Source: Alphaproteobacteria bacterium (GTDB taxonomy: Bacteria; Pseudomonadota; Alphaproteobacteria; Micavibrionales; Micavibrionaceae). Taken from it: 64,000 nucleotides of DNA. The translations under genes and the position numbers were made by a program. Of this stretch, positions 3,771-41,627 are shown piece after piece; the first letter of the stretch is position 1, and each line of letters opens with the position of its first letter. The notes under the pieces were generated by a model. It searched no databases. It was not told the DNA's origin and was given only the letters and a program-made list of their open reading frames with translations. The stretch spans positions 5,647-69,646 of the forward strand of contig JAKLKY010000004.1 of the NCBI GenBank assembly GCA_023150415.1. The letters run 5' to 3'.

Positions 3771-4847
3771 ATGCGTTATAAACGACAAATAACCCTGCCT
3801 GAAATCGGCATTGACGGACAAGAGAAGATTGCCCGCGCCCATGTTCTATGCGTCGGTGCAGGCGGGCTGGGTTCTCCGGCGTTGTTATATTTGGCGGCGG
3901 CAGGAATAGGCCATATTGGAATCATCGATTTTGACCACGTCGATGAAAGCAACCTGCAGCGGCAGATTTTATTTACAATAGACGGCATTGGTCAGCCTAA
4001 AGCGGTTCAAGCTAAGGAACGGTTACAAGCCCTCAATCCTGAAATAGAGATCACAGTCTACGAAGATGAATTAAACGCTGAAAACGCACCGGATTTATTT
4101 CAGGCTTACGATATCATTCTTGACGGCACCGATAATTTCGAAACAAAATTTTTGATTAACGATGCTGCGGTGAAATACAAAAAACCATGGGTTTACGGGG
4201 CAATTCAGGGGTTCGATGGTCAAGCCAGCGTGTTTGATGCACAAACAGGCCCTTGTTACCGATGTCTTTATCCGGAAAAACCCAAGGCACGTATCGCCAA
4301 CTGCGCAGAAGCCGGAGTCATTGGCGCTGTCGCTGGTCTTATTGGCGTGACGCAGGCGTTGCAGGTTATTCAACTTGTAACAAGGCATGAAAGTTTTGAG
4401 CCTTTGTTCGGCAAGCTCTGGACGCTGGATACCAAAACGATGCAAACGCGCATTCTGAACATTCCTAAAAATCCTGACTGCCCGGCCTGCAGTAAAAAAC
4501 GGGATGATGTTATCCTTGCCTACAGCTCCCCTGTTTGCGGATTTGTGCCGGAATTAACGCCGCAGCAAGCGCGCGGCAGAAGCAATTCCTGCCTGATCGA
4601 TGTGCGTGAAAAGGAAGAATGGGATCAGGGGCATATTGATGGGGCGCAGCTCTGGCCGCTTTCAAAAATAATGGCGGGTGATCTGCCTGATTTGCCGCAA
4701 GAGACGGAAATTATCCTGCATTGTCAAAAAGGCATGCGCAGCCTGCAAGCCGCACAAATTCTTAAGGTGCAAGGATATTTAGAGGTTTACAGTGTGTCCG
4801 GAGGGTATGAAGCGTGGGTTAACTGCTTTGAGGACGCGTCAGAATAA
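3771..4847 (+). CDS. moeB: Molybdopterin-synthase adenylyltransferase MoeB/MoeZ with C-terminal rhodanese domain
   Basis: ThiF/MoeB fold GAGGLGSP...DFDHVDESNLQRQ, CYRCLYP...CPAC zinc site, and a rhodanese tail with HCQKGMRS. Confidence 0.85.
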   Translation: MRYKRQITLPEIGIDGQEKIARAHVLCVGAGGLGSPALLYLAAAGIGHIGIIDFDHVDESNLQRQILFTIDGIGQPKAVQAKERLQALNPEIEITVYEDELNAENAPDLFQAYDIILDGTDNFETKFLINDAAVKYKKPWVYGAIQGFDGQASVFDAQTGPCYRCLYPEKPKARIANCAEAGVIGAVAGLIGVTQALQVIQLVTRHESFEPLFGKLWTLDTKTMQTRILNIPKNPDCPACSKKRDDVILAYSSPVCGFVPELTPQQARGRSNSCLIDVREKEEWDQGHIDGAQLWPLSKIMAGDLPDLPQETEIILHCQKGMRSLQAAQILKVQGYLEVYSVSGGYEAWVNCFEDASE

Positions 4848-5175
4848 ATAGAGAAACAATGCTGAGTACTGTCATCTGAATTAAAATTACTACTAACGGC
4901 ACTTCTAAAATGACGCTCAACAAGAAGGTTATTAATATTGTCACTATAGCGTAAGTCTTATTCCGTTTACTGATACTCCCGTTCTCTCTCCAGTCTATTA
5001 TAGCCGGACCAAAAGAAGGGTGGCACAAAAGCCACGCGTGCAGTTTTTCAGAAGACCTTGCAAAACTAAATGCGCTTAACAGTAAAAAAGGTGTTGTTGG
5101 CAATAAGGGCAATACAATTCCTATGATCCCCAAGGCCAAGAAGATAAAACCTAAAATTTTCAATATCGTCTGCAT
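4819..5175 (-). CDS. YbaN/DUF454 family inner-membrane protein
   Basis: LGIIGIVLPLLPTTPFLLLSAFSFARSS is the DUF454 signature. Three predicted TM segments. Confidence 0.7.
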   Translation of the reverse strand: MQTILKILGFIFLALGIIGIVLPLLPTTPFLLLSAFSFARSSEKLHAWLLCHPSFGPAIIDWRENGSISKRNKTYAIVTILITFLLSVILEVPLVVILIQMTVLSIVSLFILTRPQSS

Positions 5176-5183
5176 ATAACTCT

Positions 5184-6500
5184 TTAAGCAATTTTCTTCA
5201 GCTCCGTCATAAACACACCCATTTTATCGAGCAGCAGATGTACGCGCTTCACGGCCTGCCCCGAAAGTTCACCTGTTGCCTGCATGACATCATTAGCCGC
5301 TTGTCCGACCTGCGCCATACTTTGATTGATCTCACGGACATTTCCTGCAACGCCGTGCGTTCCAGCGGAAGCATGCTCTGCACTGTTTGCAATTTCCTTG
5401 GAGGCCGCACTTTGCTCCTCAATCGCGGCAGCAACAGCTGTAGCAGCTTCGTTGACCTCCGATATAACAGAACCAATTGAAGTAAATGTTTTGACAACAT
5501 TACTAACGGATCCCCGTATACTGGTCACGAGGCCTGCAATCTCTTCGGTGGCCTTGCTGGTTTGCCCTGCCAGTTCCTTAACTTCGCTGGCCACAACAGC
5601 AAAGCCTTTTCCGGCTTCGCCCGCGCGCGCAGCTTCAATCGTGGCATTGAGCGCCAGAAGATTTGTTTGTCCTGCAATATCTTCGATCATACTGACCACT
5701 TCACCAATTTTATCGGCCATTTGTGAAAGTTCAGCAATGGTTTGTGTGGCGGCAGCAGATTCTTCAACGGCCATTCTGGAGATAGAGGAGGTTTTGTTCA
5801 TCTGCTGGGTAATCTCGGCAATGCAACTCGACATTTCTTCTGCAGCGGCGGATATCGTCTGCACACTCATCGAGGCGCTGTCAGAACTACGCATGGCAGC
5901 ATCAGCACCGTGAGAAGTTATAGAAACAGAATTTTGCATCGTTCCCGCGCTGCTCTCCAGCGTCTTTGCCGTCGCATTAATCTGCTGAACGACTTCGGTC
6001 AAGGACGTATCAAGATCGTTTGCTACATTCACAAACCCGTTCATTTTGTCTTCGACATTGTGCGCGGCACGGTTGATAATCCGCGCACCGTTCAGAAGAT
6101 TACCATGCATTCCGGCTTCCAGAATACGGCGAAAATACTGATTGCGACTCACATGTTCCATGGCGGCGGTAGCCTCGCGGATGAAGGAATCCACAGTATC
6201 GACCATCTCATTCAGCTTCCATTGAAATTCGCCAAATTCCCCTTTTTCCGTGATGTTGGTCAGGCGTGATTCAAAATCACCCTTGGCAAGTGCGCTGACG
6301 GTTTCGGTCATTCGTTCGATTTCAAATTCAGATTTTTTGATTTTAAGGAGAGCCATCACTTGACAAGCTGCAACCAAACCAACGCCTGCAAGCCCCATCC
6401 AAGATCCGCTAAAAAACAAAAAGCCGCCGGTTAGCACGCATGCAACCAGCGCAGTGCCATTAAGCAGCCTTGCGCTGGAGAGCGAAGATAAGTTCATCAT
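5184..6500 (-). CDS. Methyl-accepting chemotaxis protein (TM + signalling domain, no ligand domain of its own)
   Basis: Highly conserved MCP hairpin [34 protein letters not shown], with an N-terminal TM region. Confidence 0.85.
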
Positions 6501-7041
6501 AATTCATACCTTTCTGCTTGACGGCATCGAGCAACATCTCAAAGCCCTTGTTCATGCCCTCCTTGGCGTTTTTATGCCGGTTTTCTTCCTCAAGCACGGC
6601 CTTGTAGAGCGGAATAATGGTAGAATTCAGGACATCGCGGTCGGGCACGCGGCGGTTGGAATGATAGCCGACAATCTGGCCATTTTTATCAAAGGATGGC
6701 GTGACATGCGCCAGTACCCAATAATGGTCTCCGTTTTTACTCATATTGTTGACATAGGCAAAAATCTCACGGCCTGCGCCAATCGTATCCCAGAGAAGCT
6801 TAAACACACTGCGCGGCATTTCCGGGTTGCGGATAAGACTATGTGGCTCACCCAAAAGCTCCGGTTCCTGATAACCCGAAATATTGATAAAAACGCGATT
6901 GACATATGTAAGCCGACCCTTAAGATCCGTCTTGCTGACGATCACTTCATCTTCACGGAAAAACCGCTCAACGCCGGTTGGCACCATTTTCGTTCTTACA
7001 TTTTCAGTCATAACTTTCTCATACAAGCTCCTGTCGTTCAT
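6460..7041 (-). CDS. Stand-alone Aer-like PAS domain protein
   Basis: [53 protein letters not shown]...[12 protein letters not shown] matches the Aer-type FAD-PAS sensor. Confidence 0.8.
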
Positions 7042-7067: not shown

Positions 7068-7081
7068 TTGATTCAGATCAA
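7068..7081. promoter_or_regulatory. FNR/Anr/Dnr-type box TTGATTCAGATCAA
   Basis: Perfect TTGAT-N4-ATCAA, centred 33.5 bp upstream of the PAS gene ATG (7041). Confidence 0.7.
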
Positions 7082-7104: not shown

Positions 7105-7863
7105 CTAAAGCATACTAATAAATTTCATAATGAGCCGGACTGACACATAAAGGATCAGCAGTGCAGTCATCTTCTTGACCATGGACATGTTAATTTGCAC
7201 TGCGCCCAGCCAGGATCCGATCTGTCCGCCGATTAAAACCGCGGGCAGCAAAATCCAGTAAGGGGAAAGAGCCGAGAATGAATCAATATCCTCAATTTTC
7301 AGGCTCTGACCGATAAGGCCTGCCAATGAATTGACCAGAATAAAAAACGCGCATGCTCCGGCGATCTGCTTGGCATTTCCCCAGCGCATAAAATGGAGAA
7401 CGGGCGCCAGAAAAATGCCGCCGCCTATCCCCGTTATTCCGGCCATAAAGCCCAGCAATGTGCCAAAAATAGCGGGCATAAAACTATGCTGTGGTACTTT
7501 CAAGTTTGGAAATGACGGGTCTTCTTTTTCCGGCCATAAAAGCCTGATTCCTGAGAGCAAGAGAGCAAACCCTAAGACTCCGGTGAAAATAACCTCTGGC
7601 ACCGGGATTAACCCACCAACAAAGGAGGCCGGAACTGAAAAAATAATCCACGGCGCAATGCGGGGAAGCCGGATATGCCTCTCTCTTGAGAAATGCCATA
7701 CCCCCCCGGAAACCACCACGATATTACAAATGAGGGAAATAACGGGGATCAGCTGATAATCCGTATCCCCAAGCACTAAAAGCGCGTTATAGGTCGATCC
7801 GCCGCCAAATCCGATACAGGCGTAAAGCAGGGCAGTCATAAAAAACAGAAAAGCCAGAACCAT
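7105..7863 (-). CDS. TauE/SafE (TSUP, DUF81) family anion exporter
   Basis: Polytopic membrane protein with N-terminal ACIGFGGGSTYNALLVL and an internal GITGIGGGIFLAPVL repeat typical of TSUP. Confidence 0.75.
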   Translation of the reverse strand: MVLAFLFFMTALLYACIGFGGGSTYNALLVLGDTDYQLIPVISLICNIVVVSGGVWHFSRERHIRLPRIAPWIIFSVPASFVGGLIPVPEVIFTGVLGFALLLSGIRLLWPEKEDPSFPNLKVPQHSFMPAIFGTLLGFMAGITGIGGGIFLAPVLHFMRWGNAKQIAGACAFFILVNSLAGLIGQSLKIEDIDSFSALSPYWILLPAVLIGGQIGSWLGAVQINMSMVKKMTALLILYVSVRLIMKFISML

Positions 7864-7866
7864 ATA

Positions 7867-8220
7867 TTATGCTTTCTGGCGTGGCCTGCTATCCGCCCTG
7901 AGGTCAACTTGAAGAAAGATATCAAGACCGTTCACACGCGCACAAAGTCCTTCTTTGCTGCGTCCCATATCAATGAGATTTTGTATCTGATCCTTACTTG
8001 TACAGAGCATCAGACAGGATTCATCCTTATCTAAAATGAGTTTGAGCGGGGCTTCTTTAAAATTTTCAAAATACTCTGCCGGATCGGGATCAATGACCAT
8101 CGCAAAATCATTCCCGCCAATGGACACAGCTTTTTCTATCGGCTGACCTGTACTCAGAATATTTAATTCATCTTCTGTGATTTTGAATGTCACGGATTTT
8201 TCGGTGATTTTTACATTCAT
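7867..8220 (-). CDS. Hypothetical protein, translationally coupled to mobA
   Basis: ATG 8220 overlaps the mobA stop as ATGA. No recognisable motif. Confidence 0.5.
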   Translation of the reverse strand: MNVKITEKSVTFKITEDELNILSTGQPIEKAVSIGGNDFAMVIDPDPAEYFENFKEAPLKLILDKDESCLMLCTSKDQIQNLIDMGRSKEGLCARVNGLDIFLQVDLRADSRPRQKA

Positions 8221-8744
8221 GAATTTACAACCTCCGCCCAATCCTGCGGCGTATTGGCATTTTTCATGGAAGAGGAAAAATGCTCCGGCAACGCTACAGG
8301 ATAGATGCCGTAATCATCTAATAAACCTTGAACTGATGTTTTCTCGCTCTGCTGATAAGGCGGAGTCATGAAGGCTGGCAAAGGCCAGTCAATAAAATAC
8401 CCTCCCTCTTTTTGTTGCAAAAGCAGGTGCAGCATATCCGGTTTTAACAAGGGCATATCAACGGGAATAAACAACAATCCCGCATAACTAGAAAGGCGCT
8501 TGATAACTAACTTTATCGCTTCAGCCGGCCCTGTAAATGGCTCCTGATCAGAAAGGCAGTCGTAACCATCAACATCGCCGCTGATAAATATTTCCTTGAT
8601 CCCGGTTGTTTTAAGTATCTCCATCATATGTTCGATGAGCGGCTTCCCTTGGTAATCCAGCAAAGCCTTATTCTGCCCCATGCGGCTTGAGCGCCCTCCT
8701 GCCAAAACGACTCCGGCGATAGCGTTAAAATCAACCATGCGCAT
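8217..8744 (-). CDS. mobA: Molybdenum cofactor guanylyltransferase
   Basis: VVLAGGRSSRMGQNKALLDYQGKPLIEHM is the MobA nucleotide-binding signature. Confidence 0.8.
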   Translation of the reverse strand: MRMVDFNAIAGVVLAGGRSSRMGQNKALLDYQGKPLIEHMMEILKTTGIKEIFISGDVDGYDCLSDQEPFTGPAEAIKLVIKRLSSYAGLLFIPVDMPLLKPDMLHLLLQQKEGGYFIDWPLPAFMTPPYQQSEKTSVQGLLDDYGIYPVALPEHFSSSMKNANTPQDWAEVVNS

Positions 8745-9216
8745 CCTCCTGACAATGGCCGCAACAGGTCATGGAGTGCTCCGCTTCCTCTGACAGGGAA
8801 TGTCCCGGCAACCAGTCGCTCATACCATCCACATAATGCTCTTTTTTCCAGATGGGAGCGCGTTTTTTAATTTCTTCGATGACGTAACGGCACGCTTCAA
8901 AACTCTCGGCGCGGTGCGGGGAACTCACAGCAATGATAATGCTGATCCCGCTGACATCCAGAGTGCCCTGATAGTGCGCAACATAATAGCGTGTATCAGG
9001 CCATAGCCCTTGTGCTTCCTCACAAATTTCATGAAAGGCTTTTTCTGCCAGGGCTTCATGCACATCGTATGTGATGCCTGTTACGCTTTTACCCTCATGC
9101 ATATTGCGCACTGTGCCGATAAACGTATCAATGGCCCCATGCGCCGGATCGATAACACTTTGCATTGCCGTTTCTAGGCTTAAAGGATCAGCGCTGACAA
9201 AAACTTGAATACTCAT
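8731..9216 (-). CDS. moaE: Molybdopterin synthase catalytic subunit MoaE with Cys-rich C-terminal tail
   Basis: GAIDTFIGTVRN...IIAVSSPHRAESFEACRYVIEEIKKRAPIWKKE, plus the extra tail SMTCCGHCQEDAHG. Confidence 0.85.
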   Translation of the reverse strand: MSIQVFVSADPLSLETAMQSVIDPAHGAIDTFIGTVRNMHEGKSVTGITYDVHEALAEKAFHEICEEAQGLWPDTRYYVAHYQGTLDVSGISIIIAVSSPHRAESFEACRYVIEEIKKRAPIWKKEHYVDGMSDWLPGHSLSEEAEHSMTCCGHCQEDAHG

Positions 9217-9219
9217 TCC

Positions 9220-9468
9220 TTAGCCCCCACAGACCGGCGGTAAAATGGAAAGAGGCGTTTCTTCCTGCAGGATATAAGCATTTGGCAAAATTGCATTGTC
9301 ATTGGCAAGAACGGATTCTTCCACCAGTGTTTTATGCTGCTCGCCCAATTGCTGCACCAAGGCTGCCTTAATTTGCTGCACAGAAGATCCGGCATCAACA
9401 GTAACGCAGAGCGTATCGCCAAATTGTCTGAAAACACCAAAACATTTGATAGAGTAATTTATCATCAC
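9220..9468 (-). CDS. moaD: Molybdopterin synthase sulfur carrier MoaD
   Basis: 82-aa ubiquitin-like protein ending in GG (LPPVCGG), immediately upstream of moaE. Confidence 0.8.
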   Translation of the reverse strand: MMINYSIKCFGVFRQFGDTLCVTVDAGSSVQQIKAALVQQLGEQHKTLVEESVLANDNAILPNAYILQEETPLSILPPVCGG

Positions 9469-10511
9469 TACGCTTTCTCATACCCTTGTTTTTTAATCTT
9501 GTTCAGCGCATCACCGATAAAAGGAGCGATAATATCCCAGCATTCCTTGACAGCATTGGGAGAGCCCGGAAAAGCGATGACAAGTGTTGAGCCAACCATG
9601 CCCGCCGTCATACGGGACAGCCATGCGGTATCCGTGAAATGAAGGCTTTCAGTGCGCAGCACATCGCCTAGCCCCTCAAGCATCCGGTCGCTTATTTTTT
9701 GCAAAACGTCAGGAGTCACATCGCGCGGCCCGGGCCCCGTACCGCCAGAAGCAATCAGGATATCCGGCTTATGCTGCGCAGAAATATCTTTAATCGCTGC
9801 AGCGATTTTATCCGCTTCGTCAGGTATGACCTCACAGCATTTGATATCGGCTCCCGCCGCGCTCAAAAGTTCCTTTAAAACGGGACCGGATTTGTCTTCA
9901 TACTCGCCTTTTGATGCGCGGTCGCTCATAACCAGAATGGCGGCGGATTTACCGACGAGATTTTTTTCATCGGGCAATTGCTTGGCCAGCCAGTCAGGTA
10001 TACCATTGGGGTTGATCCAAACACCGCTTTTTCCGCCGGTTTTCACAAGCAGGTGCACAGCCTCAATTGAAAGGTTAGAATCGGTACCTTTGGTTAAATC
10101 CCAGATTGTCAGAAGCGCAGCATTTGCACCCGCCAAGGCTTCCATCTCGACACCTGTTTTCGCAAAAGCAACGGCCTGTGCATAGACTGTAATGCTGTGA
10201 TCCTCCTCATTCATGGCACAATGGATGGTGACCTGATCCAGCGGCAATGTGTGGCACATAGGGATAAGATCCGGTGTTTTTTTTGCGCCTGTGATGCCTG
10301 CCGCTTCAGCGAGTGCCAAAACATTGCCTTTAGGCAACTTGCCATTTTTGATCGCTTCAAAGGCTTCCGCGTTCATATGAATAGTGCCGCAAGCTACAGC
10401 GCGCCTGCGCGTTGGTCTTTTGCGTCCGACATCAATCATTTTGAAATTGGGCTGCGCCGCCGTGGGAAAGGCAATAACTTCTTCTGGTTTTGACATGGTT
10501 TTATCCTCCAA
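9468..10511 (-). CDS. moaC: Bifunctional MoaC (cPMP synthase) / MogA-MoaB domain protein
   Basis: N-half has KTPDLIPMCHTLPLDQV...TGVEMEALAGANAALLTIWDLTK. C-half has ILVMSDRASKGEYEDKSGP...ASGGTGPGPRDVTPD. Confidence 0.85.
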   Translation of the reverse strand: MEDKTMSKPEEVIAFPTAAQPNFKMIDVGRKRPTRRRAVACGTIHMNAEAFEAIKNGKLPKGNVLALAEAAGITGAKKTPDLIPMCHTLPLDQVTIHCAMNEEDHSITVYAQAVAFAKTGVEMEALAGANAALLTIWDLTKGTDSNLSIEAVHLLVKTGGKSGVWINPNGIPDWLAKQLPDEKNLVGKSAAILVMSDRASKGEYEDKSGPVLKELLSAAGADIKCCEVIPDEADKIAAAIKDISAQHKPDILIASGGTGPGPRDVTPDVLQKISDRMLEGLGDVLRTESLHFTDTAWLSRMTAGMVGSTLVIAFPGSPNAVKECWDIIAPFIGDALNKIKKQGYEKA

Positions 10512-11490: not shown

Positions 11491-11625
11491 ATCAATAGAC
11501 TCCTTTCCAAACACGGGAGATCATGGCGTTTCCACACATAACCCCGGCCAATACGCCATATCCATTTAATAAGGACTTAGGACATAAAGGCTTCAGAGCG
11601 GCCATGCGCAAATGAACATGGCGAA
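11491..11625 (-). ncRNA. Candidate Moco riboswitch in the moaA leader
   Basis: Minus-strand leader contains GCTCTGAAGCC, the helix ATGGCG...GGAAAC...CGCCAT, then CTCCCGTG...GGAAAGGAG overlapping the RBS. These resemble the CUCCGAGCC / CCCG / AAAGGAG blocks of the Moco motif as I recall them. Not folded or scored. Confidence 0.35.
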
Positions 11626-11666: not shown

Positions 11667-11680
11667 TTGATCTGAATCAA
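11667..11680. promoter_or_regulatory. FNR-type box TTGATCTGAATCAA
   Basis: Perfect palindrome in the moaA / nnrU divergent gap. It lies ~180 bp upstream of moaA ATG and only 12 bp from nnrU ATG. Confidence 0.7.
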
Positions 11681-30067: not shown

Positions 30068-30071
30068 GCCA

Positions 30072-32014: not shown

Positions 32015-32031
32015 TATTTTTTCCTTATCGT

Positions 32032-32730: not shown

Positions 32731-32734
32731 TACT

Positions 32735-33436: not shown

Positions 33437-33450
33437 TTGATCTAGATCAA
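33437..33450. promoter_or_regulatory. FNR-type box TTGATCTAGATCAA
   Basis: Perfect palindrome in the divergent gap, 67.5 bp from the BioH-like ATG (33376) and 147.5 bp from nrdD ATG. Confidence 0.7.
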
Positions 33451-33590: not shown

Positions 33591-35633
33591 ATGTCCGACG
33601 CCTCTGCTGCCAGATCCAAAACCACCGATTCTGTAGAGAAAAAATCAGTGATCGCTTTTCCGGCGACTCACCCCGCCAACCCTGAAACAGATCAGATCGT
33701 TACGCTTTTTGGCGGAACATCTGTGGATTGCTCCGAGGCGATCAGCGAGTATATTTCCGGATCTGACTGGAGAATCAAGGCCAATGCCAATACCGGGTAC
33801 TCCAATGCCGGCCTGATCAATAATGTCGCCGGAAAAGTGATCGCCAATTTCTGGCTGGATGAAGTTTACTCCCCCGAAGAGGGACAGGCGCACCGCAATG
33901 GCGATGTTCACATCCACGATCTGGACTGCCTGACCGGATATTGCGCGGGCTGGTCACTTCGTGCCCTGCTCAATGACGGATTTAATGGCGTTGGCGGACG
34001 TGTTTCCTCTCGCCCCCCACGTCATTTCCGTGAGGCTTTAGGGCAAATGTCCAATTTCCTTGGCATCCTGCAATCCGAATGGGCGGGCGCGCAGGCGTTC
34101 AGCTCCTTTGATACCTATCTTGCGCCATACGTCTTTTATGATCAACTGAGCTTTAAAGAAGTTAAAAAGGCGATTCGTCAGTTTGTTTATAATCTGAACG
34201 TGCCCGCACGCTGGGGACAATCACCCTTCACCAATATCACGCTGGATATTACAGTGCCCGAAGATCTGCAGAATCAGTTCCCAACATATAGCAACCTGCA
34301 TCTCTTTAAAGGGATCGAGAACGATGAATTGCTGTTAAAGGCACAGCAGCGTGACATGGGTTTGCGCAGTCTTGAAGACACCACATTTAAACATTTTGCC
34401 CCTGAAATGGAGATGATCAATATCGCTTATTACGAGGTGATGACCGAAGGCGATTCAACTGGGCAGCCTTTTACCTTCCCGATTCCAACCGTCAATATCA
34501 CCGAGGATTTTGACTGGGACAGCAAAGTGGCAGCGGCTATTTTTGAAAATACGGCAAAAGTCGGTTCCTCTTATTTCCAAAATTTCGTTGGTTCCCAATG
34601 GATGAAAAATGAAAAAGGGGAGCGCGTACGCAATCCGGAAGCCTATTCCCCCGGCGCGGTACGTTCCATGTGCTGCCGCCTGCAACTGGATTTGCGCGAG
34701 CTACTTAAGCGCGGGAACGGCCTATTTGGCTCAGCAGAGATGACCGGCTCTATCGGCGTTGTGACTCTGAACATGGCGCGCCTGGGCTACCGCTTCAAAG
34801 GCGACTTCAAGGGCTTGATGGCGGAAGTTGACCGCCTGATGGATATAGGCAAATCCACATTGGAGAAAAAACGGGTCTTCGCACAGAAAATGTATGATCG
34901 CGGGCTCTACCCCTATACATCCCGCTACCTGCCGTTTTTCCGCAATCACTTCTCCACCATCGGTGTCAACGGTATGAATGAGATGATCCGTAATTTCACC
35001 GATGACGAGCATGACATTACAGACGAGCAAGGCATTCAGATGAGTATTGATATTCTGGATCATATGCGCACAAAACTCCTTGGTTATCAGGAAGAAACTG
35101 GCAATCTCTATAATCTGGAGGCTACGCCGGCGGAAGGAACGACATACCGTTTTGCCAAGGAAGACAAGAAGCGCTTCCCCGATATCCTGCAGGCAGGCTT
35201 TGGTGAAAACATATACTACACCAATTCATCCCAAATTCCTGCCGATCACACAGAAGACCCGTTTGAAGCTCTGGAGCTGCAAAACCGTCTGCAGTGCAAA
35301 TATACGGGCGGTACGGTGTTGCATCTTTACATGAATGAGAAGCTGAGCAGCGCCGAAGCCTGTAAGGGGTTCGTCAAAAAAGTGATTGGCAATTACCAGC
35401 TTCCCTATATCACCGTGACGCCTGTTTTCTCGGTTTGTGATACGCATGGCTATCTCAACGGAGAGCAGCCAGAATGCCCGACCTGCGGTGAAAACACCAA
35501 AGTGTGGACACGTGTCATGGGCTATTTCCGTCCCGTGGACAGCTTTAACAAAGGCAAACAGGGCGAACACCGTGAACGCAAGCACTTCAAGGAAGACTGG
35601 GTTGATACCGGTAGTCTTTTCACTGGCGTGTAA
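33591..35633 (+). CDS. nrdD: Anaerobic ribonucleoside-triphosphate reductase (class III)
   Basis: C-terminal Zn site CDTHGYLNGEQPECPTCG and glycyl-radical motif TRVMGYFRPV. 680 aa. Confidence 0.93.
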   Translation: MSDASAARSKTTDSVEKKSVIAFPATHPANPETDQIVTLFGGTSVDCSEAISEYISGSDWRIKANANTGYSNAGLINNVAGKVIANFWLDEVYSPEEGQAHRNGDVHIHDLDCLTGYCAGWSLRALLNDGFNGVGGRVSSRPPRHFREALGQMSNFLGILQSEWAGAQAFSSFDTYLAPYVFYDQLSFKEVKKAIRQFVYNLNVPARWGQSPFTNITLDITVPEDLQNQFPTYSNLHLFKGIENDELLLKAQQRDMGLRSLEDTTFKHFAPEMEMINIAYYEVMTEGDSTGQPFTFPIPTVNITEDFDWDSKVAAAIFENTAKVGSSYFQNFVGSQWMKNEKGERVRNPEAYSPGAVRSMCCRLQLDLRELLKRGNGLFGSAEMTGSIGVVTLNMARLGYRFKGDFKGLMAEVDRLMDIGKSTLEKKRVFAQKMYDRGLYPYTSRYLPFFRNHFSTIGVNGMNEMIRNFTDDEHDITDEQGIQMSIDILDHMRTKLLGYQEETGNLYNLEATPAEGTTYRFAKEDKKRFPDILQAGFGENIYYTNSSQIPADHTEDPFEALELQNRLQCKYTGGTVLHLYMNEKLSSAEACKGFVKKVIGNYQLPYITVTPVFSVCDTHGYLNGEQPECPTCGENTKVWTRVMGYFRPVDSFNKGKQGEHRERKHFKEDWVDTGSLFTGV

Positions 35634-35635
35634 TC

Positions 35636-36382
35636 ATGGCTCTTGCGCTTGCCAATAAACCGGAAGCCAGGCCCCCTGTCAAAAAACAGGGGGCGCTTCC
35701 CATATACTCTGTCACCCCCTTCACGATGCTCGATTTTCCGGGACAGACGGCCTGTATTGTCTGGTTTTCCGGATGCAACATGCGCTGTCCTTACTGTCAC
35801 AATCCTCAAATCGTCAAAGGCAAGGGGCGAGGCGATGTGGGTCAGGTTTTCGATTTCCTGAAAAAACGCGCAGGACTTCTGGATGGAGTCGTTCTCTCCG
35901 GCGGTGAGGCCTCGGCCTATCCCGGGTTGCCCGATTTTATCAAACAGGTAAAAAAACTTGGTTATGCCGTCAAACTTGATACGAACGGTCTAAGACCCGA
36001 TATCATTGACGATTTCTTGCGTCAGGGATTTTTGAATTACATTGCGCTGGATTACAAAGCCCCGCCCCATAAATTCAAGAAAGTCACGGGCGTTGATAAA
36101 TACAACGAATTCACCAAAACGCTTGATCTTTTATGCGCGCAAAAAGCCGTGCCATTTGAGGTGCGCACGACTGTTCACACAAATCTGATGGATGAAGATG
36201 ATGTCAATGCCATTATCCATGATCTTGAAAATCGTGGTTACCAAGGCCGGCACGCCATACAGAATTTCACCCATAGCGATGATCGCCCGACATTGGGCTT
36301 TATGCGTGAACAAGAGCGCGTCTTGAATACGGACGCTCTCTATGCTCCTCCAAATTTCACCTTGGAATTTCGTAACTTTTAA
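35636..36382 (+). CDS. nrdG: Anaerobic RNR activating protein (radical SAM)
   Basis: FSGCNMRCPYCHNP motif, immediately after nrdD. Confidence 0.88.
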   Translation: MALALANKPEARPPVKKQGALPIYSVTPFTMLDFPGQTACIVWFSGCNMRCPYCHNPQIVKGKGRGDVGQVFDFLKKRAGLLDGVVLSGGEASAYPGLPDFIKQVKKLGYAVKLDTNGLRPDIIDDFLRQGFLNYIALDYKAPPHKFKKVTGVDKYNEFTKTLDLLCAQKAVPFEVRTTVHTNLMDEDDVNAIIHDLENRGYQGRHAIQNFTHSDDRPTLGFMREQERVLNTDALYAPPNFTLEFRNF

Positions 36383-36395: not shown

Positions 36396-36794
36396 TTAAG
36401 AAACTGTATCACCAAGCGTATGTTGGTTGAGGGTGTTTATAAATTCATTGCTGGCATCAAACAGATAATGCTTCAGATTACAGGTCTGCGTCACACGGCA
36501 GGTATTTGTTACGGCATCAAAGCATTCCACCATGAACATGTTTGGCTCCAGCTGCTTTACAATATCGCCAAGCCGCAGGTCTTGTGCCCCTTCGGCAAGC
36601 CGGATGCCGCCGCCCTTACCCTTGCTGGTTTCGATATATCCAAGCTGTGACAGGCGGTGAACAATTTTAACCAGATGGTTGCGGGAAATTTTATAATATT
36701 CGGAAATTTCCTTCACGCTGGATAGGTCATCAGGGCGCGCAGCCAGATACATCAGGCAACGCAGGCCGTAATCGGTAAATCGTGTTAACTGCAT
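36396..36794 (-). CDS. nsrR: Rrf2-family NO-sensing repressor NsrR
   Basis: MQLTRFTDYGLRCLMYLA...ISRNHLVKIVHRLSQLGYIETSKGKGGGIRLA, with three C-terminal Cys (ECFD...NTCRVTQTCNL). Divergent from hmp. Confidence 0.85.
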   Translation of the reverse strand: MQLTRFTDYGLRCLMYLAARPDDLSSVKEISEYYKISRNHLVKIVHRLSQLGYIETSKGKGGGIRLAEGAQDLRLGDIVKQLEPNMFMVECFDAVTNTCRVTQTCNLKHYLFDASNEFINTLNQHTLGDTVS

Positions 36795-36854
36795 AATGCT
36801 GTACTCATCATAAAATTTATCGTGGACAGGGTTGCATAATTAGCCGCGATCTAT

Positions 36855-36877
36855 AATATACATACCAAATACATATT
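36855..36877. promoter_or_regulatory. Candidate NsrR operator AATATACATACCAAATACATATT
   Basis: Imperfect inverted repeat. The right half AAATACATATT fits the AAATGCATNTT half-site and the left half is weaker. It overlaps a TATAAT-like -10 in the nsrR/hmp gap. Confidence 0.4.
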
Positions 36878-36894
36878 AAGAAAGGCAATTCCCC

Positions 36895-38130
36895 ATGCTG
36901 TCCCAACAAACCATCGATATCGTCAAATCCACTGCGCCTATTTTGAATGAACATGGCGAAACGCTGACCAAGCATTTTTACAAACGCATGTTCAGCCACA
37001 ACCCGGAAGTAGCACCGTTTTTTAATCCGGCCAATCAGGCGGGCGGTACGCAGCAACGCGCACTCGCGGCGGCAATTTGCGCGTATGCGGCGAATATCGA
37101 CAATCTGGAAGTGCTGGGCGGTGCGGTGGAACTGATCGCCCATAAACATGCCTCCCTGATGATCAAGCCGGAGCATTATCCAATTGTCGGTGAAAACCTG
37201 CTTGCTTCTATCCGTGAGGTGCTCGGCGAAGGTGCAACCGATGATGTGATCAACGCATGGGGTGAAGCGTATGGCTTTCTGGCCGATATCCTGATTGGGC
37301 GGGAAAAGCAGCTTTACAGTGAGAATGCGGACAAGACCGGAGGCTGGGAGGGCTTCCGTAACTTTGTGATAGATCGCAAAGAAAAGGAAAGCAGCATTAT
37401 TACGTCCTTTTACCTAAAGCCCAAAGACGGCGGCGCTTTGCCGTCCTATATGGCTGGGCAGTATATTACGGTGCGGATGCCTACAAAGGATGGTTCAACC
37501 ACCATGCGTAATTACAGCCTGTCCGACAAACCCGGTCAGGACTATTTCCGCATCAGTGTAAAACGCGAAGTTGGCGCGAAAGCTGATACGCCGAAGGGCT
37601 ATGTGTCCAACACACTTCATGATGCAATCAATGTCGGTGATACGCTTGAAATTGGGCCGCCATGCGGCGAATTCTTCCTGAACACGAATGACAAGCACGA
37701 ACGCCCGCTGGTTTTGCTGGCGGCGGGGGTTGGCATTACCCCGATCCTCAGCATTTTGCAAACCGCGTTGGAGGTCATGCCGCATCGTGAAATTATTCTG
37801 ATCCATGGCTGCCTGAACAGGGATGTGCAGCCGTTTAAGGACACGATTGATACGCTGGCGGCAAAACATGAAAACCTGACCGCTCACTACCGTTACAGTG
37901 AGCCAACGGGCGGTGAAGATAGCGCCGGTGATAATTGCTCCGGCGGATTTGTTGATGCAGTACTGATTGAAAGCCTCGTACCCTCACGCCATGCGGATTA
38001 TTATTTCTGCGGCCCGAAGCCTTTCATGGTGAATATTTATCACGAGCTTCTGGCTTGGGGCATTCCTGGTAATCAGGTGCATTTTGAATTCTTCGGTCCG
38101 CGGGAAGAGCTAAAGCGGAAAGCCGCCTGA
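36895..38130 (+). CDS. hmp: Flavohaemoglobin (NO dioxygenase)
   Basis: Globin N-domain MLSQQTIDIVKSTAPILNEHGETLTKHFYKRMF, then FAD/NAD reductase domain (RNYSLSD, LLAAGVGITP). Confidence 0.93.
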   Translation: MLSQQTIDIVKSTAPILNEHGETLTKHFYKRMFSHNPEVAPFFNPANQAGGTQQRALAAAICAYAANIDNLEVLGGAVELIAHKHASLMIKPEHYPIVGENLLASIREVLGEGATDDVINAWGEAYGFLADILIGREKQLYSENADKTGGWEGFRNFVIDRKEKESSIITSFYLKPKDGGALPSYMAGQYITVRMPTKDGSTTMRNYSLSDKPGQDYFRISVKREVGAKADTPKGYVSNTLHDAINVGDTLEIGPPCGEFFLNTNDKHERPLVLLAAGVGITPILSILQTALEVMPHREIILIHGCLNRDVQPFKDTIDTLAAKHENLTAHYRYSEPTGGEDSAGDNCSGGFVDAVLIESLVPSRHADYYFCGPKPFMVNIYHELLAWGIPGNQVHFEFFGPREELKRKAA

Positions 38131-38157
38131 TCAAAGCCTGCGGAAAGGACAAAAATT

Positions 38158-38487
38158 ATGGCATTACCACATGCAAAACCGGGAGAGAGTGTCGATCTGA
38201 ACCCTTTGGGAGAGGCACTGAAAGATGCTAGAACGCAAGCCATCATCAAGACTGATAGTTTTGAGGCCATTCGTCTTGTCCTTCAGGCAGGCACAGAAAT
38301 TCCGTCACATAAAGTCCCTGGAGAAATCACCCTGCACTGTCTTGAAGGGTGCGTATCACTTGGGCTGACAGGATCCGTCATAAATCTGCGAGCCGGTGAA
38401 TGGCTGTATTTAAATGGCGGAGAACCCCATTCCGTAAAAGCGGAAGAAGATTCTTCGCTTTTGCTCACAATTATTCTCAAGACATAA
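38158..38487 (+). CDS. Small cupin-domain protein
   Basis: 109 aa with GTEIPSHKVPGEITLHCLEG...GEWLYLNGGEPHSV, a cupin two-motif layout. Co-directional with hmp. Confidence 0.55.
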   Translation: MALPHAKPGESVDLNPLGEALKDARTQAIIKTDSFEAIRLVLQAGTEIPSHKVPGEITLHCLEGCVSLGLTGSVINLRAGEWLYLNGGEPHSVKAEEDSSLLLTIILKT

Positions 38488-38492
38488 GAAAC

Positions 38493-38506
38493 TTGATCTG
38501 GGTCAA
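38493..38506. promoter_or_regulatory. FNR-type box TTGATCTGGGTCAA (one mismatch)
   Basis: 13/14 to the palindrome, centred 40.5 bp upstream of ribB ATG 38540. Confidence 0.6.
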
Positions 38507-38539
38507 GGCCTTGAAGCGCATTTTTGTTTTTGATAACGC

Positions 38540-39166
38540 ATGAAAACAAAGCTGGCATCCGTGAAAGATATTATAGAGGATCTGCGTGAAAAACGGATGG
38601 TCATACTGGTCGATGACGAATGCCGTGAAAACGAAGGCGATCTTGTAATTCCGGCCTCCATCGCTACGCCGGAGCATATCAATTTTATGGCCACACACGG
38701 GCGTGGACTGATCTGTCTGGCGATGAGCGCCGATAATATTGATCGCCTCGGCCTGCCCTTGATGACAGAAAATAATGATTGCAGGCTCGGCACGGCCTTT
38801 ACTGTCTCCATAGACGCAAGGGACAAGACCACAACAGGCATATCTGTTCATGATCGCTCTCACACTGTTCGATTGGCCGCCGACCCCCAAAGCAGCCACA
38901 GCGATTTTCGTATCCCCGGTCATATCTTCCCCTTGCGCGCCCGCGAAGGCGGCGTTTTAGAGCGCGCAGGTCATACAGAGGCGTCTGTAGAATTAGCAAG
39001 TTTGGCGGACTTTGGTGAGGCCGCTGTTATATGCGAAATCATGAAAGAAGACGGCACAATGGCGCGGCTGCCTGATTTGGTAAGGTTCGCAGAAAAACAC
39101 AACCTTCATATTGCCAGCATCAGTGACGTTATTGATTACATCCATCAGAAAAGGAACGCCGCATGA
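38540..39166 (+). CDS. ribB: 3,4-dihydroxy-2-butanone-4-phosphate synthase
   Basis: VILVDDECRENEGDLVIPA...HGRGLICLAM...RAGHTEASVELA is the DHBP synthase signature. Confidence 0.88.
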   Translation: MKTKLASVKDIIEDLREKRMVILVDDECRENEGDLVIPASIATPEHINFMATHGRGLICLAMSADNIDRLGLPLMTENNDCRLGTAFTVSIDARDKTTTGISVHDRSHTVRLAADPQSSHSDFRIPGHIFPLRAREGGVLERAGHTEASVELASLADFGEAAVICEIMKEDGTMARLPDLVRFAEKHNLHIASISDVIDYIHQKRNAA

Positions 39167-39600
39167 GCAAGATCCTTATCATTGAGGCCTGCTTTTACCA
39201 GGACATTGCCATCCTGTTACGGGAAGGCGCCATCGACGTGCTGAATAAGCAAGGGCATGAGTACGAGATTGAAACAGTTCCAGGGGTGCTGGAAATCCCA
39301 GCGGCATTAAATTTCTTTATCTCCGGCAAGAAAAATTACGATGCCTATGTCGTTCTGGGCTGCGTTATTCGCGGCGAAACTTCCCATTACGATATTGTCT
39401 GCAACGAAAGTGCGCGGGGCGTTTATGATTTGGTTCTAAAACATAATCTGGCTTTGGGGAACAGCATACTCACCGTTGAAAACAAAGATCAGGCTATTGC
39501 ACGCGCAGACCCGCAAAAGAAAAACAAAGGGGGCGATGCCGCTAAAGCCGCCCTGCATATGTTGGGACTTCGCCAGAAAATTTTGATTGGTACCGCTTGA
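39163..39600 (+). CDS. ribH: 6,7-dimethyl-8-ribityllumazine synthase
   Basis: VPGVLEIPAAL...VVLGCVIRGETSHYDIVCNE...ALGNSILTVEN. Start overlaps the ribB stop. Confidence 0.85.
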   Translation: MSKILIIEACFYQDIAILLREGAIDVLNKQGHEYEIETVPGVLEIPAALNFFISGKKNYDAYVVLGCVIRGETSHYDIVCNESARGVYDLVLKHNLALGNSILTVENKDQAIARADPQKKNKGGDAAKAALHMLGLRQKILIGTA

Positions 39601-39610
39601 TCCAGATCAA
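39597..39610. promoter_or_regulatory. FNR-type box TTGATCCAGATCAA
   Basis: Perfect palindrome overlapping the ribH stop, centred 62.5 bp upstream of ytfE ATG (39666). That ATG has an AGAGGAG RBS. Confidence 0.7.
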
Positions 39611-39665
39611 GGCCTCATGCCTGAAATCTATGAGAATACTCATAGTCAGTAGAGGAGATAAAATT

Positions 39666-40349
39666 ATGAATGAAATAGCCATACAAAATAAAACAGTTCG
39701 TGAAATAGCCGGACAGCATACCGACAGCTATAAAATCTTTCATAAATACGGAATTGATTTTTGTTGCGGCGGGAAGCGTTTGTTATCCGATGTTTGCGAA
39801 GAAAAAGGCATCGAAATCTCTGAGATCGCTAATGATTTTGTGGCATTAGAAAAAACCCCAAGTGACCAAAAAGATTGGAAGACTGAAACACTTGAAAATC
39901 TTATCAACCATATTGTTGATACGCATCATCAATATTTACGGGATGATTTGCCGAGGCTGTTTCATTTGACACAAAAAGTGGCATCGCGCCATGGTGAAAG
40001 GGACACGCATCTCTATAAGGTCCTTGAAGTGTATGTTTCTATGGCAAACGAACTTCTCGCACACATTGAAAAAGAGGAAAGGGTTCTCTTTCCTATGATA
40101 ATCGAGATGGAAAAAGCCGGTGACATATCCTCACAAATCATGATGCCGATATTGGCTATGGAAGCTGAGCACGAAGAAGCCGGAGCAGCGCTGGAAGAAC
40201 TGAATCGCTTAACAGAAAGTTATGCCATCAAGCCTAATATGTGCGCCTCGTATCAGGCTCTTTATGTCGGATTGAAACAATTGGAAAAGGATTTAAAGCT
40301 CCATATTCACAAAGAAAACAACATTCTATTTCCCCGGGTTCAAAAATAA
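39666..40349 (+). CDS. ytfE: Iron-sulfur cluster repair di-iron protein (YtfE/RIC/DnrN)
   Basis: FHKYGIDFCCGGKRLL (ScdA_N motif) plus hemerythrin-like HH..YL, HEEAG and HIHKENNILFP. Confidence 0.85.
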   Translation: MNEIAIQNKTVREIAGQHTDSYKIFHKYGIDFCCGGKRLLSDVCEEKGIEISEIANDFVALEKTPSDQKDWKTETLENLINHIVDTHHQYLRDDLPRLFHLTQKVASRHGERDTHLYKVLEVYVSMANELLAHIEKEERVLFPMIIEMEKAGDISSQIMMPILAMEAEHEEAGAALEELNRLTESYAIKPNMCASYQALYVGLKQLEKDLKLHIHKENNILFPRVQK

Positions 40350-40361
40350 CGGCCTAGAAAA

Positions 40362-41627
40362 ATGCTCAAAACAAAACTCTTAAAGGCGCTGCTGCTCCCG
40401 ACTGTTTGTGGATTCATGATACAGGGCGCATCATCAGCATTTGCCGGAGAAGATGTTGAGAGCATTATTAAAGAAGGCGATTTTTTTGGGGAGATGCGCT
40501 ATCGCTATGAACATGCCGATCAGGATAACATAGCAAATGATGCCAAAGCCTCGACCGTTCGCACTAATCTTGGCTTCAAAACCGGTGTGTACAAAGATTT
40601 TCAAGCCTTGCTTGAAGGACAGATTGTTCAGAATATAGGCGCAAATGATTTTAACGACACAACAAACGGGAAAACGGCTTATCCGGTTGTTGCTGACCCG
40701 GATGTGGCTGAAATTAATGAGCTATGGCTTTCATGGGCAGGATTGCCGCAAACATCTATTGCAATTGGCCGCCAGAAAATGAATCTGGATAATCAGCGCT
40801 TCATCGGCACAGTTGACTGGCGGCAGAACGATCAGACCTTTGATGCCTTACAAGTGACAAATGCCAGCATCGAAAATCTGAATGTGATGTACGCCTATGT
40901 GGGAAATGTAAATCGTATCTTCGGTGACGATAATCCATTGGGCGATCTGGACTCAAATATTCACATCGCGCATGCGTCTTATGCCTTCGCGGATTGGCTA
41001 AAATTAACGGGCTACGGATACTGGCTTGATTTTGACAGTTTGGCAACCAGCTCCTCTAAAACTTTTGGCACACGGGCAACGGGTAAAATTCCTGTGAATG
41101 AACATTGGGCCTTTTCTTATGAGGCGGAAGCCGCCACGCAAGACGACCATGGCAATAATGCCACGAGCTACGATGAAGGATATTACCATATTTCACCTTC
41201 ATTCTCCGGCCATGGTTTTACGTTCACAGCAGGGTACGAAGTATTGGGTGGAGATGGTACAAATGCCTTTCAGACACCACTTGCGACCTTGCACAAATTC
41301 AATGGCTGGGCTGATGCGTTCTTGAGTACACCAAATGCCGGTCTTGAAGATGTCTATGTGAGTGGGGCTTATAAAGTATCGGGCACAAAGAGCTTCTTTG
41401 ACGATACAACATTTACTGCCATCTATCATGATTTTGATAGTAACGATTCCAGCACCGGCGATTTTGGTGATGAGCTTGATTTGTCTGTTGGAAAAAGTTT
41501 CATGCTTCCTGATGCAGGCCAACCATTTAAGAAATTGGATGTTCTGCTGAAATATGCTGATTATAATGGCGATAGCGGGGTTGCCAGCCGTGAGAAATTT
41601 TGGCTGCAGGTAGGCGTGAAGTTCTGA
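40362..41627 (+). CDS. Outer-membrane beta-barrel porin (alginate-export-like family)
   Basis: Signal peptide, alternating beta-strand pattern, C-terminal ...LQVGVKF. RYRYEHADQ...IGRQKMNLDNQRFIGTVDWRQN resembles AlgE-type porins. Confidence 0.5.
   Translation: MLKTKLLKALLLPTVCGFMIQGASSAFAGEDVESIIKEGDFFGEMRYRYEHADQDNIANDAKASTVRTNLGFKTGVYKDFQALLEGQIVQNIGANDFNDTTNGKTAYPVVADPDVAEINELWLSWAGLPQTSIAIGRQKMNLDNQRFIGTVDWRQNDQTFDALQVTNASIENLNVMYAYVGNVNRIFGDDNPLGDLDSNIHIAHASYAFADWLKLTGYGYWLDFDSLATSSSKTFGTRATGKIPVNEHWAFSYEAEAATQDDHGNNATSYDEGYYHISPSFSGHGFTFTAGYEVLGGDGTNAFQTPLATLHKFNGWADAFLSTPNAGLEDVYVSGAYKVSGTKSFFDDTTFTAIYHDFDSNDSSTGDFGDELDLSVGKSFMLPDAGQPFKKLDVLLKYADYNGDSGVASREKFWLQVGVKF

Follow-up and report, generated by a model that had tools for sequence, protein, structure and literature searches.

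A 59.7-kb Integrase Island at a tRNA-Met Gene That Probably Carries a Block of Genes for Low-Oxygen Nitrate Respiration as Its Main Cargo

The 64,000-nucleotide (nt) stretch analysed here (the window; positions 5,647 to 69,646 of contig JAKLKY010000004.1, assembly GCA_023150415.1) comes from an uncultured alphaproteobacterium and contains a genomic island of 59.7 kb at positions 858-60569. Positions 3771-41627 of this island (the kit) hold genes for nitrate respiration, for the molybdenum cofactor (Moco), for biosyntheses that do not need oxygen, for nitric oxide (NO) defence, and for taxis. We consider it likely that the kit is the main cargo of a site-specific island and that it serves as a block for nitrate respiration at low oxygen.

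An earlier note, made from the letters of the window alone, had described the kit as mobile cargo of an att-bounded and integrase-bounded element. The mobile cargo part is borne out by exact attachment (att) junctions, a tRNA target, a step in composition, different outside contexts, and the occurrence of the same integrase with other cargo, although the kit is only one of several cargo modules, with copper efflux and defence genes also on the island. The att bounds likewise hold (tRNA target, repeats, core), with the correction that the element is larger than the kit block, and the bounds are to be read as one integrase plus att sites, not as two integrases.

The Nitrate Respiration Kit and Its Control

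Annotation across the window was based on the longest non-overlapping open reading frames (ORFs), which were compared with NCBIfam, Pfam, PHROGs, and PADLOC; the negative statements on genes given here refer to these ORFs. All genes listed in the earlier note were found within 3771-41627, most of them full-length and above the curated cut-offs of NCBIfam or Pfam (Table 1). The narGHJI equivalog models and the NarK-type transporter all scored above their curated cut-offs, and the island carries the full set leading from Moco to its bis(molybdopterin guanine dinucleotide) form (bis-MGD), namely MoaA, MoaC, MoaD, MoaE, MoeB, Mog/MoaB, MoeA, and MobA. Items missing from the earlier list are the three genes at 30953-33376, TauE, DUF454, a cupin gene, a porin-like gene, and a Moco riboswitch.

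The claim that nitrite, NO, and N2O reductase genes are lacking agrees with our scan, in which none had a match among the ORFs (NCBIfam/Pfam/PHROGs/PADLOC), so the island's own pathway stops at nitrite. Nitrite as the end product is accordingly kept for that pathway and is not extended to the whole host. Among the annotated island ORFs there is also no modABC (molybdate uptake), no mobB, and no dedicated electron-donor dehydrogenase.

Published criteria for UbiTUV are that the three genes are co-located, that ubiV directly follows ubiU, and that an FNR site lies upstream (PMC11707229). On the island, the three genes stand together with an FNR-type box at 28477-28490 upstream of ubiT; the box overlaps the annotated start at 28477, and the true start of ubiT is probably further downstream. 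Converging on ubiV is the operon at 30953-33376, which encodes an alpha/beta hydrolase, a methyltransferase, and a ThiO-like oxidoreductase. This operon may be a hitherto overlooked partner of O2-independent ubiquinone synthesis, or it may place an odd O2-dependent enzyme in an anaerobic regulon. A homologue of the ThiO-like oxidoreductase directly follows ubiV in two Hyphomicrobium genomes (L009 and L010, about 9900-10980).

The best evidence for common control is the motif TTGAT-N4-ATCAA (TTGATNNNNATCAA), which occurs at 8 exact sites where 0.11 are expected; none of 100 shuffles reached 8. With a ninth site that has one mismatch (38493-38506), all boxes fall within 7068-39610, are intergenic or at annotated operon 5' ends, each front kit transcription units, and have the extended form TTGATYYRRRTCAA in common. 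Three of them are kept at equivalent positions in a relative whose proteins are 57-87% identical (L047, described below), which argues for box function. The box in front of hemN has its centre 40.5 nt from the start codon. Between the moa operon and nnrU, the box and the 5' end of the Moco riboswitch are separated by about 55 nt, with the box upstream, and the moa operon would therefore be under dual control by oxygen and cofactor.

Two Crp/Fnr proteins are encoded in the kit, both with an E--SR recognition motif, and their identities are ones that we infer from similarity. The closest named solved relative of Crp/Fnr no. 1 is Pseudomonas aeruginosa DNR (1.6e-27, with FNR at 1.5e-9), and the protein is probably an NO-responsive regulator of the NnrR/Dnr type. 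Crp/Fnr no. 2, which occupies the NarR position, ends in 27 residues (CHFCDSDTASLC...CEKCPLH) that form a C-terminal CxxC-x7-C...CxxC tail, and the tail is conserved in the 66% identical orthologue of L047. The Fnr protein of Bacillus subtilis has a C-terminal cluster, and by this analogy the cysteines of Crp/Fnr no. 2 may, speculatively, be a metal or Fe-S sensor.

The earlier note had also proposed that the kit is wired as a single regulon. The shared motif stands (8 boxes versus 0.11), but a single regulator does not: control is predicted to be layered, with FNR-type boxes (served by host FNR and/or the island paralogues), the Moco riboswitch, NsrR, and the two Crp/Fnr paralogues. NsrR half-sites (AANATGYATTT) number two in the window, one of them in the nsrR-hmp spacer, which is not above chance (12 of 100 shuffles), and we do not claim an NsrR regulon by sequence. 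Promoter and terminator scans gave counts near the shuffle means (within about 1.3 standard deviations) and were not used.

Taken together, the kit could work as follows. When oxygen drops, an FNR-family activator would bind the boxes before about nine transcription units, the candidates being the host FNR, Crp/Fnr no. 2 with its cysteine-rich tail, or both; the boxed promoters would be turned on by low oxygen and later by nitrate, nitrite, or NO. NarK would exchange nitrate and nitrite by antiport, and NarGHI would oxidise ubiquinol, the synthesis of ubiquinone being kept up by the O2-independent UbiTUV. NarJ together with the Moa, Moe, Mog, and Mob enzymes would deliver bis-MGD, with the riboswitch throttling the pathway, and the O2-independent HemN would maintain haem b for NarI and Hmp. 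Deoxynucleotides would come from the O2-independent NrdDG, and ribBH would add steps of riboflavin synthesis. The PAS protein and the methyl-accepting chemotaxis protein (MCP) would form a taxis receptor that steers the cell. NO arising from accumulating nitrite would be sensed by NsrR and the Dnr-like Crp/Fnr no. 1, and its damage would be limited by Hmp, YtfE, NnrS, and NnrU.

Relatives of the kit can be ordered by NarG identity: 98-99% for island copies, 92% for a metagenome-assembled genome (MAG) labelled Alcanivorax, 86% for Sneathiella, 82-84% for Rhodospirillales and other alphaproteobacterial MAGs, 78% for Micavibrio-labelled MAGs, and about 73% for beta- and gammaproteobacteria. The Sneathiella-type contig has only crp-narK(fused)-narGHJI-ppiC, amid unrelated genes, and L047, a Micavibrio-labelled contig of 757 kb, has narG-narK-crp-moeA-ubiTUV-nrdDG at the protein identities given above. 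In Hyphomicrobium, the arrangement is nnrS-crp ... ubiTUV-DAO. The Alcanivorax-labelled contig (L049; GCA_051967755.1, 64 kb, NarG 92% identical) has the moa-to-ubi part in the same order with narK unfused, an NrdD in the same 90%-identity cluster as that of the island, and a copper module (cusB/cusA) directly after ubiV. This contig reflects either spread across classes or mis-binning, and a transfer from alpha- to gammaproteobacteria is not claimed since a 64-kb contig could be mis-binned. Matches of NarG on plasmids were tried as a guide to the donor; they level off at about 69-70% in alpha-, beta-, and gammaproteobacteria alike and identify none.

From these arrangements, the 38-kb block is best read as modules, found apart from one another elsewhere, that have accreted on a conserved core made up of crp, narK, narGHJI, and ppiC. 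The earlier note had named completeness as the point of interest, and the separate occurrence of the component modules in other genomes supports completeness as the unusual feature.

One may ask whether a mobile island needs to have changed the physiology of its host at all. The kit could be a redundant or upgraded set in an already facultative host, or it could serve mainly micro-oxic life and defence against nitrosative stress; we regard this as possible, though on balance we doubt it. Alphaproteobacteria, Rhodospirillales, and Micavibrio-labelled MAGs commonly have NarG relatives at 78-88% identity, in some cases on contigs of more than 1 Mb, which makes Nar widespread in the group; for ubiTUV, an ancestral and mostly vertical history in Pseudomonadota is reported (PMC11707229). 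A host function is duplicated at least once, the island ThiO-like gene being 45% identical to the flanking thiO (60710-61798), and NO defence (hmp, ytfE, nnrS, nnrU, and nsrR) accounts for much of the kit. However, stress defence alone explains poorly why O2-independent enzymes for haem, deoxynucleotides, and quinone stand with Nar and full Moco synthesis behind one motif, and in Sphingopyxis granuli TFA, a smaller set exclusive to the strain accompanies real anaerobic growth (see below).

Island Limits, Recurrence, and Mobility

The limits of the island are set by its target. The tRNA-Met(CAT) gene is the sole tRNA gene in the window (ARAGORN, Rfam), and we take it to be initiator-like from its C1/A72 mismatch. 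Its 3' 47 nt are duplicated at the far end of the island (811-857 versus 60538-60584, 87% identity, including an identical stretch of 19 nt). When junctions from public assemblies are aligned, the island-side sequence is conserved up to a 15-nt core, CCTTCAGGTTATGAG. The left arm begins TGCTGTGCGGCTCCC, and the right arm terminates ...AAAAAATTGGTTGCGGGAGTAGGATTTGAACCTACGA. The left junction comes directly after the core and is kept on four contigs (L003, L006, L026, and L027); four others (L037, L039, L042, and L032) retain the right arm and its T-arm sequence but differ from one another in the outside sequence. The attB junction would be ...GGGGGCCAGATTTGAACTGACGACCTTCAGGTTATGAG joined to CCTGACGAGCTACCGGGCTGCTCC, and the attP junction ...GGGAGTAGGATTTGAACCTACGACCTTCAGGTTATGAG joined to TGCTGTGCGGCTCCCTTTCTCG.

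In the mechanism that we propose, the P4-type integrase would recombine at the core, which lies in the anticodon stem-loop region of the initiator-like tRNA-Met gene. The island would bring its own tRNA 3' half, so that the tRNA gene stays intact, and the old 3' half of the host would be displaced to the far end. The 28-nt repeat on each arm, about 100-130 nt inward of each island end, is the likely arm-type integrase site; its motif was found on 7 metagenome contigs, either at island-like ends or beside a related integrase. The excisionase-like protein and the primase-helicase suggest excision and transient replication.

Composition changes at the tRNA end of the island. The G+C content (GC) is 0.486 for the island and 0.476 for the kit compared with 0.596 for the right flank, of which the window holds only 3.4 kb, which makes a step of 12 points at the tRNA gene; GC at third codon positions (GC3) is about 0.48-0.57 in the kit versus 0.63-0.70 in the right flank. 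The integrase gene (GC 0.60, GC3 0.74) resembles the host flank and not the kit, and platform and cargo therefore have different histories: the integrase platform seems native to this group, with the kit imported into it. The 810-nt left flank, which encodes the C-terminal part of an AlkB-like dioxygenase at 2-397 (+), has a GC of 0.449, unlike the right flank, and this left neighbour may therefore itself be foreign DNA.

The same island recurs next to other sequences. On a 1.53-Mb contig of GCA_021463545.1 (L026), it has 93.5% nucleotide identity over the first 11 kb and has as its neighbours a tRNA 3' half unlike that of the window and a further element with an integrase. L036, a contig of 49 kb, has a related right end placed against an intact tRNA-Met gene, with UbiB-like, COQ9-family, and IcmL-like genes next to it, a flank that differs from the thiO-thiS-thiG right flank of the window. 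Three further right ends join three different non-tRNA sequences, which suggests that tandem arrays lie at a hot spot, and the island arms are next to at least five different outside sequences in all. An integrase that is 99.5% identical in protein sequence heads islands with SIR2-like, HEPN, AAA_13, and methylase cargo, in which only DUF3489 is common, and the kit is therefore swappable cargo. Identical proteins in the same order were found in assemblies from four run-accession series (SRR17665xxx, SRR34831xxx, DRR4384xx, and SRR28480386).

Arrays at the tRNA-Met hot spot can be seen on L026 (1-9700), L040 (1-8370), L037, L039, L042, and L043 (1-9400), and contain other integrases, a serine recombinase, DISARM-like and methylase genes, and a second primase. 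On L006 (1-30), an island-type T-arm (GATTTGAACCTACGA plus the core) is joined directly to the island left arm by an overlap of only k-1 = 30 nt, which is compatible with attP, with a tandem copy, or with a host allele that has this T-arm. Contig L005 was considered as a case of alternative cargo and rejected; it is identical to the window, and its gene is truncated at the contig end.

Host relatives were sought through the flanks. In public assemblies, the flanking thiO is found only on contigs of 1-2 kb that end at the tRNA, and the search for relatives found no record of the left-flank ORF. One scan of genome contigs with the flanking ThiO gave only two Hyphomicrobium loci (41-42% identity), which have ubiTUV with a ThiO-like gene and are not relatives. 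With neither host relatives nor an empty site recovered, vertical and horizontal descent were therefore judged from the diversity of junctions.

On that evidence, it is very unlikely that we are looking at an ancient part of the chromosome, passed on by vertical descent, with a decayed integrase and a tRNA gene as neighbours. Such a region would fit the imperfect att copies (87% identity), the missing empty site, and the narG-to-nrdG synteny deep inside the 757-kb contig, where no integrase occurs within the 22 kb read. However, both junctions lie at the same 15-nt core, the island arms are conserved where the outside sequence varies, GC steps by 12 points at the tRNA, and the integrase, whose ORF is intact, keeps 98-99.5% identity between elements that have the same, variant, or wholly different cargo. 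A chimera, in which assembly or binning of the MAG wrongly joined a mobile contig to a host flank, is just as hard to credit: the source, with a contig of 76 kb, is a MAG, short-read assemblies of the same samples do break exactly at both att cores, and a near-identical kit is binned to the Alcanivorax-labelled MAG, but the left junction is spanned independently inside the 1.53-Mb contig, the right junction with its intact tRNA is spanned on the 49-kb contig, at least 10 independent contigs show the same order of genes inside the island, and the two tRNA halves combine into a tRNA that folds.

The reading of the kit as the main cargo of a mobile island for nitrate respiration does have points against it. 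Neither an empty site (attB) nor a circular junction (attP) free of ambiguity was recovered from public assemblies. The att copies are only 87% identical outside the identical 19-nt stretch, and the two best-compared island copies differ in about 6.5% of their nucleotides; transfer may therefore not be recent. A type IV secretion system, a coupling protein, a relaxase, and capsid or packaging genes had no match among the scanned ORFs of 858-60569, and with no transfer machinery encoded, spread would have to depend on a helper element, transduction, or transformation. The Cys-X2-Cys-X5-Cys motif of the FNR N-terminus, which together with a central cysteine forms the [4Fe-4S] oxygen sensor, is present in neither of the island Crp/Fnr proteins, and it may therefore be the host on which the sensing of oxygen depends. 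The MobA and MoaD assignments have weak scores, and a ThiO-like oxidase, normally O2-dependent, behind an FNR-type box misfits a purely anaerobic reading. Finally, the kit may duplicate functions of the host genome beyond the window.

Known Systems and Significance

The closest concept is the conjugative element for nitrate respiration (NCE) of Thermus thermophilus, a mobile island of about 30 kb with a nar operon, nitrate/nitrite transporters, and its own oxygen/nitrate regulators, through which a strain that had been aerobic becomes a nitrate respirer (PMC5748679). The likeness, transferable anaerobic respiration with on-board control, is one of concept only and not of membership. The NCE belongs to another phylum, resides on a megaplasmid, spreads by transjugation or transformation, and has no tRNA/integrase architecture. 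It is governed by DnrS/DnrT in place of Crp/Fnr proteins with FNR boxes and carries the nrc NADH dehydrogenase, whereas neither an nrc-like dehydrogenase nor a DnrS-type (GAF-BTAD) regulator is among the annotated ORFs of the window. Genes for Moco, HemN, NrdDG, UbiTUV, and NO defence are not among the NCE contents given in PMC5748679.

A nearer case in taxonomy is S. granuli TFA, also an alphaproteobacterium, in which SGRAN_3844-3861 comprise ftrB, narUGHJI ... moeA, ubiTUV, and fixK (PMC4741004, PMC7713065). This strain grows anaerobically on nitrate and produces nitrite, which is toxic to it, and has no nirS/nirK; its narUGHJI operon and ftrB are reported to be absent from other Sphingopyxis strains, and class II Fnr promoters with boxes at about -41.5 precede nar, ubiT, hemN, a ribonucleotide reductase gene, and a cupin gene (PMC4741004, PMC7713065). 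As on the island, the gene for the nar transporter and that for an FtrB-like Crp/Fnr protein are divergent, and moeA stands beside ubiTUV. The TFA cluster differs in that it is not described as att- or integrase-bounded in these two papers, hemN2 is at a distant locus number, moeB is described as unlinked, FnrN and FixK have N-terminal cysteines, and a quinol NO reductase is encoded elsewhere in the genome.

The repABC plasmid NZ_CP019438 (214 kb) of Thioclava nitratireducens carries crp-narK-narGHJI-ppiC-hemN-ubiVUT-rrf2 within about 18 kb. Its proteins are only about 23% (the Crp/Fnr-like regulator) to 73% identical to those of the island, no genes for Moco, nrdDG, hmp/ytfE/nnrS, or riboflavin occur within the 44 kb read, and the vehicle is a plasmid with interspersed insertion sequence elements rather than an integrase island.

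Canonical loci are narR-narK(fused)-narGHJI in Paracoccus and narK1K2GHJI-ppiC-moaA in Pseudomonas. The island has in common with them the fused NarK1/NarK2, the divergent cysteine-less regulator in the place of NarR, and a PpiC-type gene that follows narI; they differ in being chromosomal and without the accreted modules for biosynthesis, NO defence, and taxis. In its backbone the island resembles the P4 family, with an Arm-DNA-binding integrase, a tRNA 3'-half target that is regenerated, AlpA-like and primase-helicase genes, and swappable cargo. Unlike P4-like satellites, it is far larger (59.7 kb), has no capsid-related genes, and uses an initiator-like tRNA-Met target, and what it carries is a supercluster for respiration and biosynthesis, not genes for virulence or defence. 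Origin as a phage or satellite was rejected, as the arm-site motif has no match in IMG/VR and there are no capsid or packaging genes.

In the searchable literature, we found no att/integrase island that unites Nar, full Moco synthesis, three O2-independent replacements, and NO defence behind one motif. The concept is already known from the Thermus NCE and S. granuli TFA, which limits the surprise. A 2024 survey reports that ubiTUV is inherited vertically, with a single transfer detected (PMC11707229); the island and the Thioclava plasmid are explicit mobile vehicles for ubiTUV and a counter-example to near-exclusive vertical inheritance.

The range of oxygen tolerated is usually regarded as a deep and slowly evolving trait, and the loss of oxygen breaks the biosyntheses of haem, deoxynucleotides, and quinone at once together with respiration. 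Here, one site-specific element packages replacements for all of these with the respiratory enzyme, its cofactor pathway, defence against the by-product, taxis, and a shared motif. Oxygen-free growth on nitrate, a phenotype that we infer together with cell-to-cell transfer, may be transferable as one block, which would give a concrete path to acquiring anaerobic nitrate respiration in one event. It predicts that nitrite-accumulating nitrate reducers arise by island transfer in the sampled habitats. That copper efflux is carried alongside suggests co-selection.

A bolder version of this reading, which we offer tentatively and consider unlikely, is that the island circulates as a cassette that converts aerobes into facultative anaerobes among uncultured, possibly small-genome or host-associated Alphaproteobacteria that have no Nar, HemN, NrdD, or UbiUV in their core genomes. 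If true, this would make the island the first integrase-borne carrier described for O2-independent ubiquinone synthesis, with its own sensing of oxygen and NO through an uncharacterised proteobacterial Crp/Fnr subtype that has a C-terminal cysteine cluster.

Other Cargo and Feature Coordinates

Beyond the kit, the island carries a copper/silver module, which independent assemblies belonging to several run-accession series also show beside the kit, a replication and excision backbone, and defence cargo, in which AbiEii and AbiEi form a predicted AbiE toxin-antitoxin pair. All features are placed in Table 1.

Table 1. Features of the island and its limits (positions in the window)
Feature	Position	Strand	Evidence or remark
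attL, displaced host 3' half of tRNA-Met	811-857	-	15-nt core at 843-857
28-nt repeat, left copy, candidate arm-type integrase site	984-1011	+	96% identity to 60442-60469
P4-type tyrosine integrase, 401 aa, intact ORF	1078-2283	+	Arm-DNA-bind_3, Phage_int_SAM_3, Phage_integrase; phrog_1, 3.6e-66
349-aa gene, function unassigned	within 2295-3734	-	ORF; varies among related islands
DUF3489 backbone gene	3378-3734	+	kept in related islands with other cargo
moeB fused to rhodanese domain	3771-4847	+	MoeB models, 379 and 341 bits; rhodanese/GlpE at residues 266-353
MCP	5184-6500	-	
PAS protein	6460-7041	-	
FNR-type box	7068-7081		before PAS-MCP
moa operon	7105-11514	-	also with 124-aa gene of unassigned function and TauE-family permease
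MobA-like NTP transferase	8217-8744	-	58 bits versus cut-off 152; weakest call
moaE	8731-9216	-	
moaD, 82 aa	9220-9468	-	C-terminal GG; weak ThiS-family match
moaC-mog fusion	9468-10511	-	326.7 bits to bifunctional MoaC/MoaB model, cut-off 285
moaA	10501-11514	-	
Moco riboswitch, moaA leader	11484-11612	-	RF01055, 49.2 bits versus gathering 36; model positions 1-135
FNR-type box	11667-11680		between moa operon and nnrU
nnrU	11692-12381	+	Pfam NnrU
Crp/Fnr no. 1	12404-13105	+	between nnrU and nnrS
nnrS	13102-14277	-	Pfam NnrS
hemN	14261-15595	-	TIGR00538, 440 bits
FNR-type box	15629-15642		before hemN
ppiC (PpiC-type isomerase)	15649-16437	-	after narI
narG, narH, narJ, narI	16437-23359	-	narG 2156 bits
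FNR-type box	23424-23437		before narG
Fused narK-narK transporter, 879 aa	23451-26090	-	NCBIfam; two NarK stretches
FNR-type box	26196-26209		between narK and Crp/Fnr no. 2, common to both
Crp/Fnr no. 2	26234-26986	+	divergent from narK
moeA	27000-28274	-	NF007960, 331 bits
FNR-type box	28477-28490		between moeA and ubiT
ubiT, ubiU, ubiV	28477-30974	+	all three equivalog models above cut-offs
Alpha/beta hydrolase, BioC/UbiG-like methyltransferase, ThiO-like FAD oxidoreductase	30953-33376	-	convergent on ubiV
FNR-type box	33437-33450		between hydrolase operon and nrdD, common to both
nrdD, nrdG	33591-36382	+	NF006126, 1014 bits; TIGR02495, 202 bits
nsrR	36396-36794	-	
hmp	36895-38130	+	
Cupin gene	within 36396-38487	+	after hmp
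FNR-type box, one mismatch	38493-38506		before ribB
ribB, ribH	38540-39600	+	riboflavin
FNR-type box, exact	39597-39610		before ytfE
ytfE	39597-40349	+	
Porin-like gene	within 38493-41627	+	after ytfE
Copper/silver module	41788-49906	-	copA-type P-type ATPase; cusC, cusA, cusB-like resistance-nodulation-division efflux genes
Primase/helicase	51323-53464	-	AAA_25, PRK07078; phrog_239 DNA primase/helicase
185-aa gene, function unassigned	within 51323-54171	-	between primase/helicase and AlpA-like gene
AlpA/excisionase-like helix-turn-helix gene	53881-54171	-	phrog_66 excisionase
Defence cargo	55250-60181	both	DitA/DUF5677-like gene, ApeA N-terminal fragment, AbiEii-WYL, AbiEi
28-nt repeat, right copy, candidate arm-type site	60442-60469	+	96% identity to 984-1011
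Intact tRNA-Met(CAT) containing attR	60540-60616	-	core 60570-60584; island-supplied 3' part 60540-60569

A 61-nt direct repeat (60153-60213 and 60239-60299, 87% identity) lies at the 5' end of AbiEi, with one copy across the start codon and the other upstream, each with the palindrome TTTTTTCACGAAAAA(C/T)GTGAA. From their position, the two copies are probably a pair of autoregulatory operators of AbiEi.

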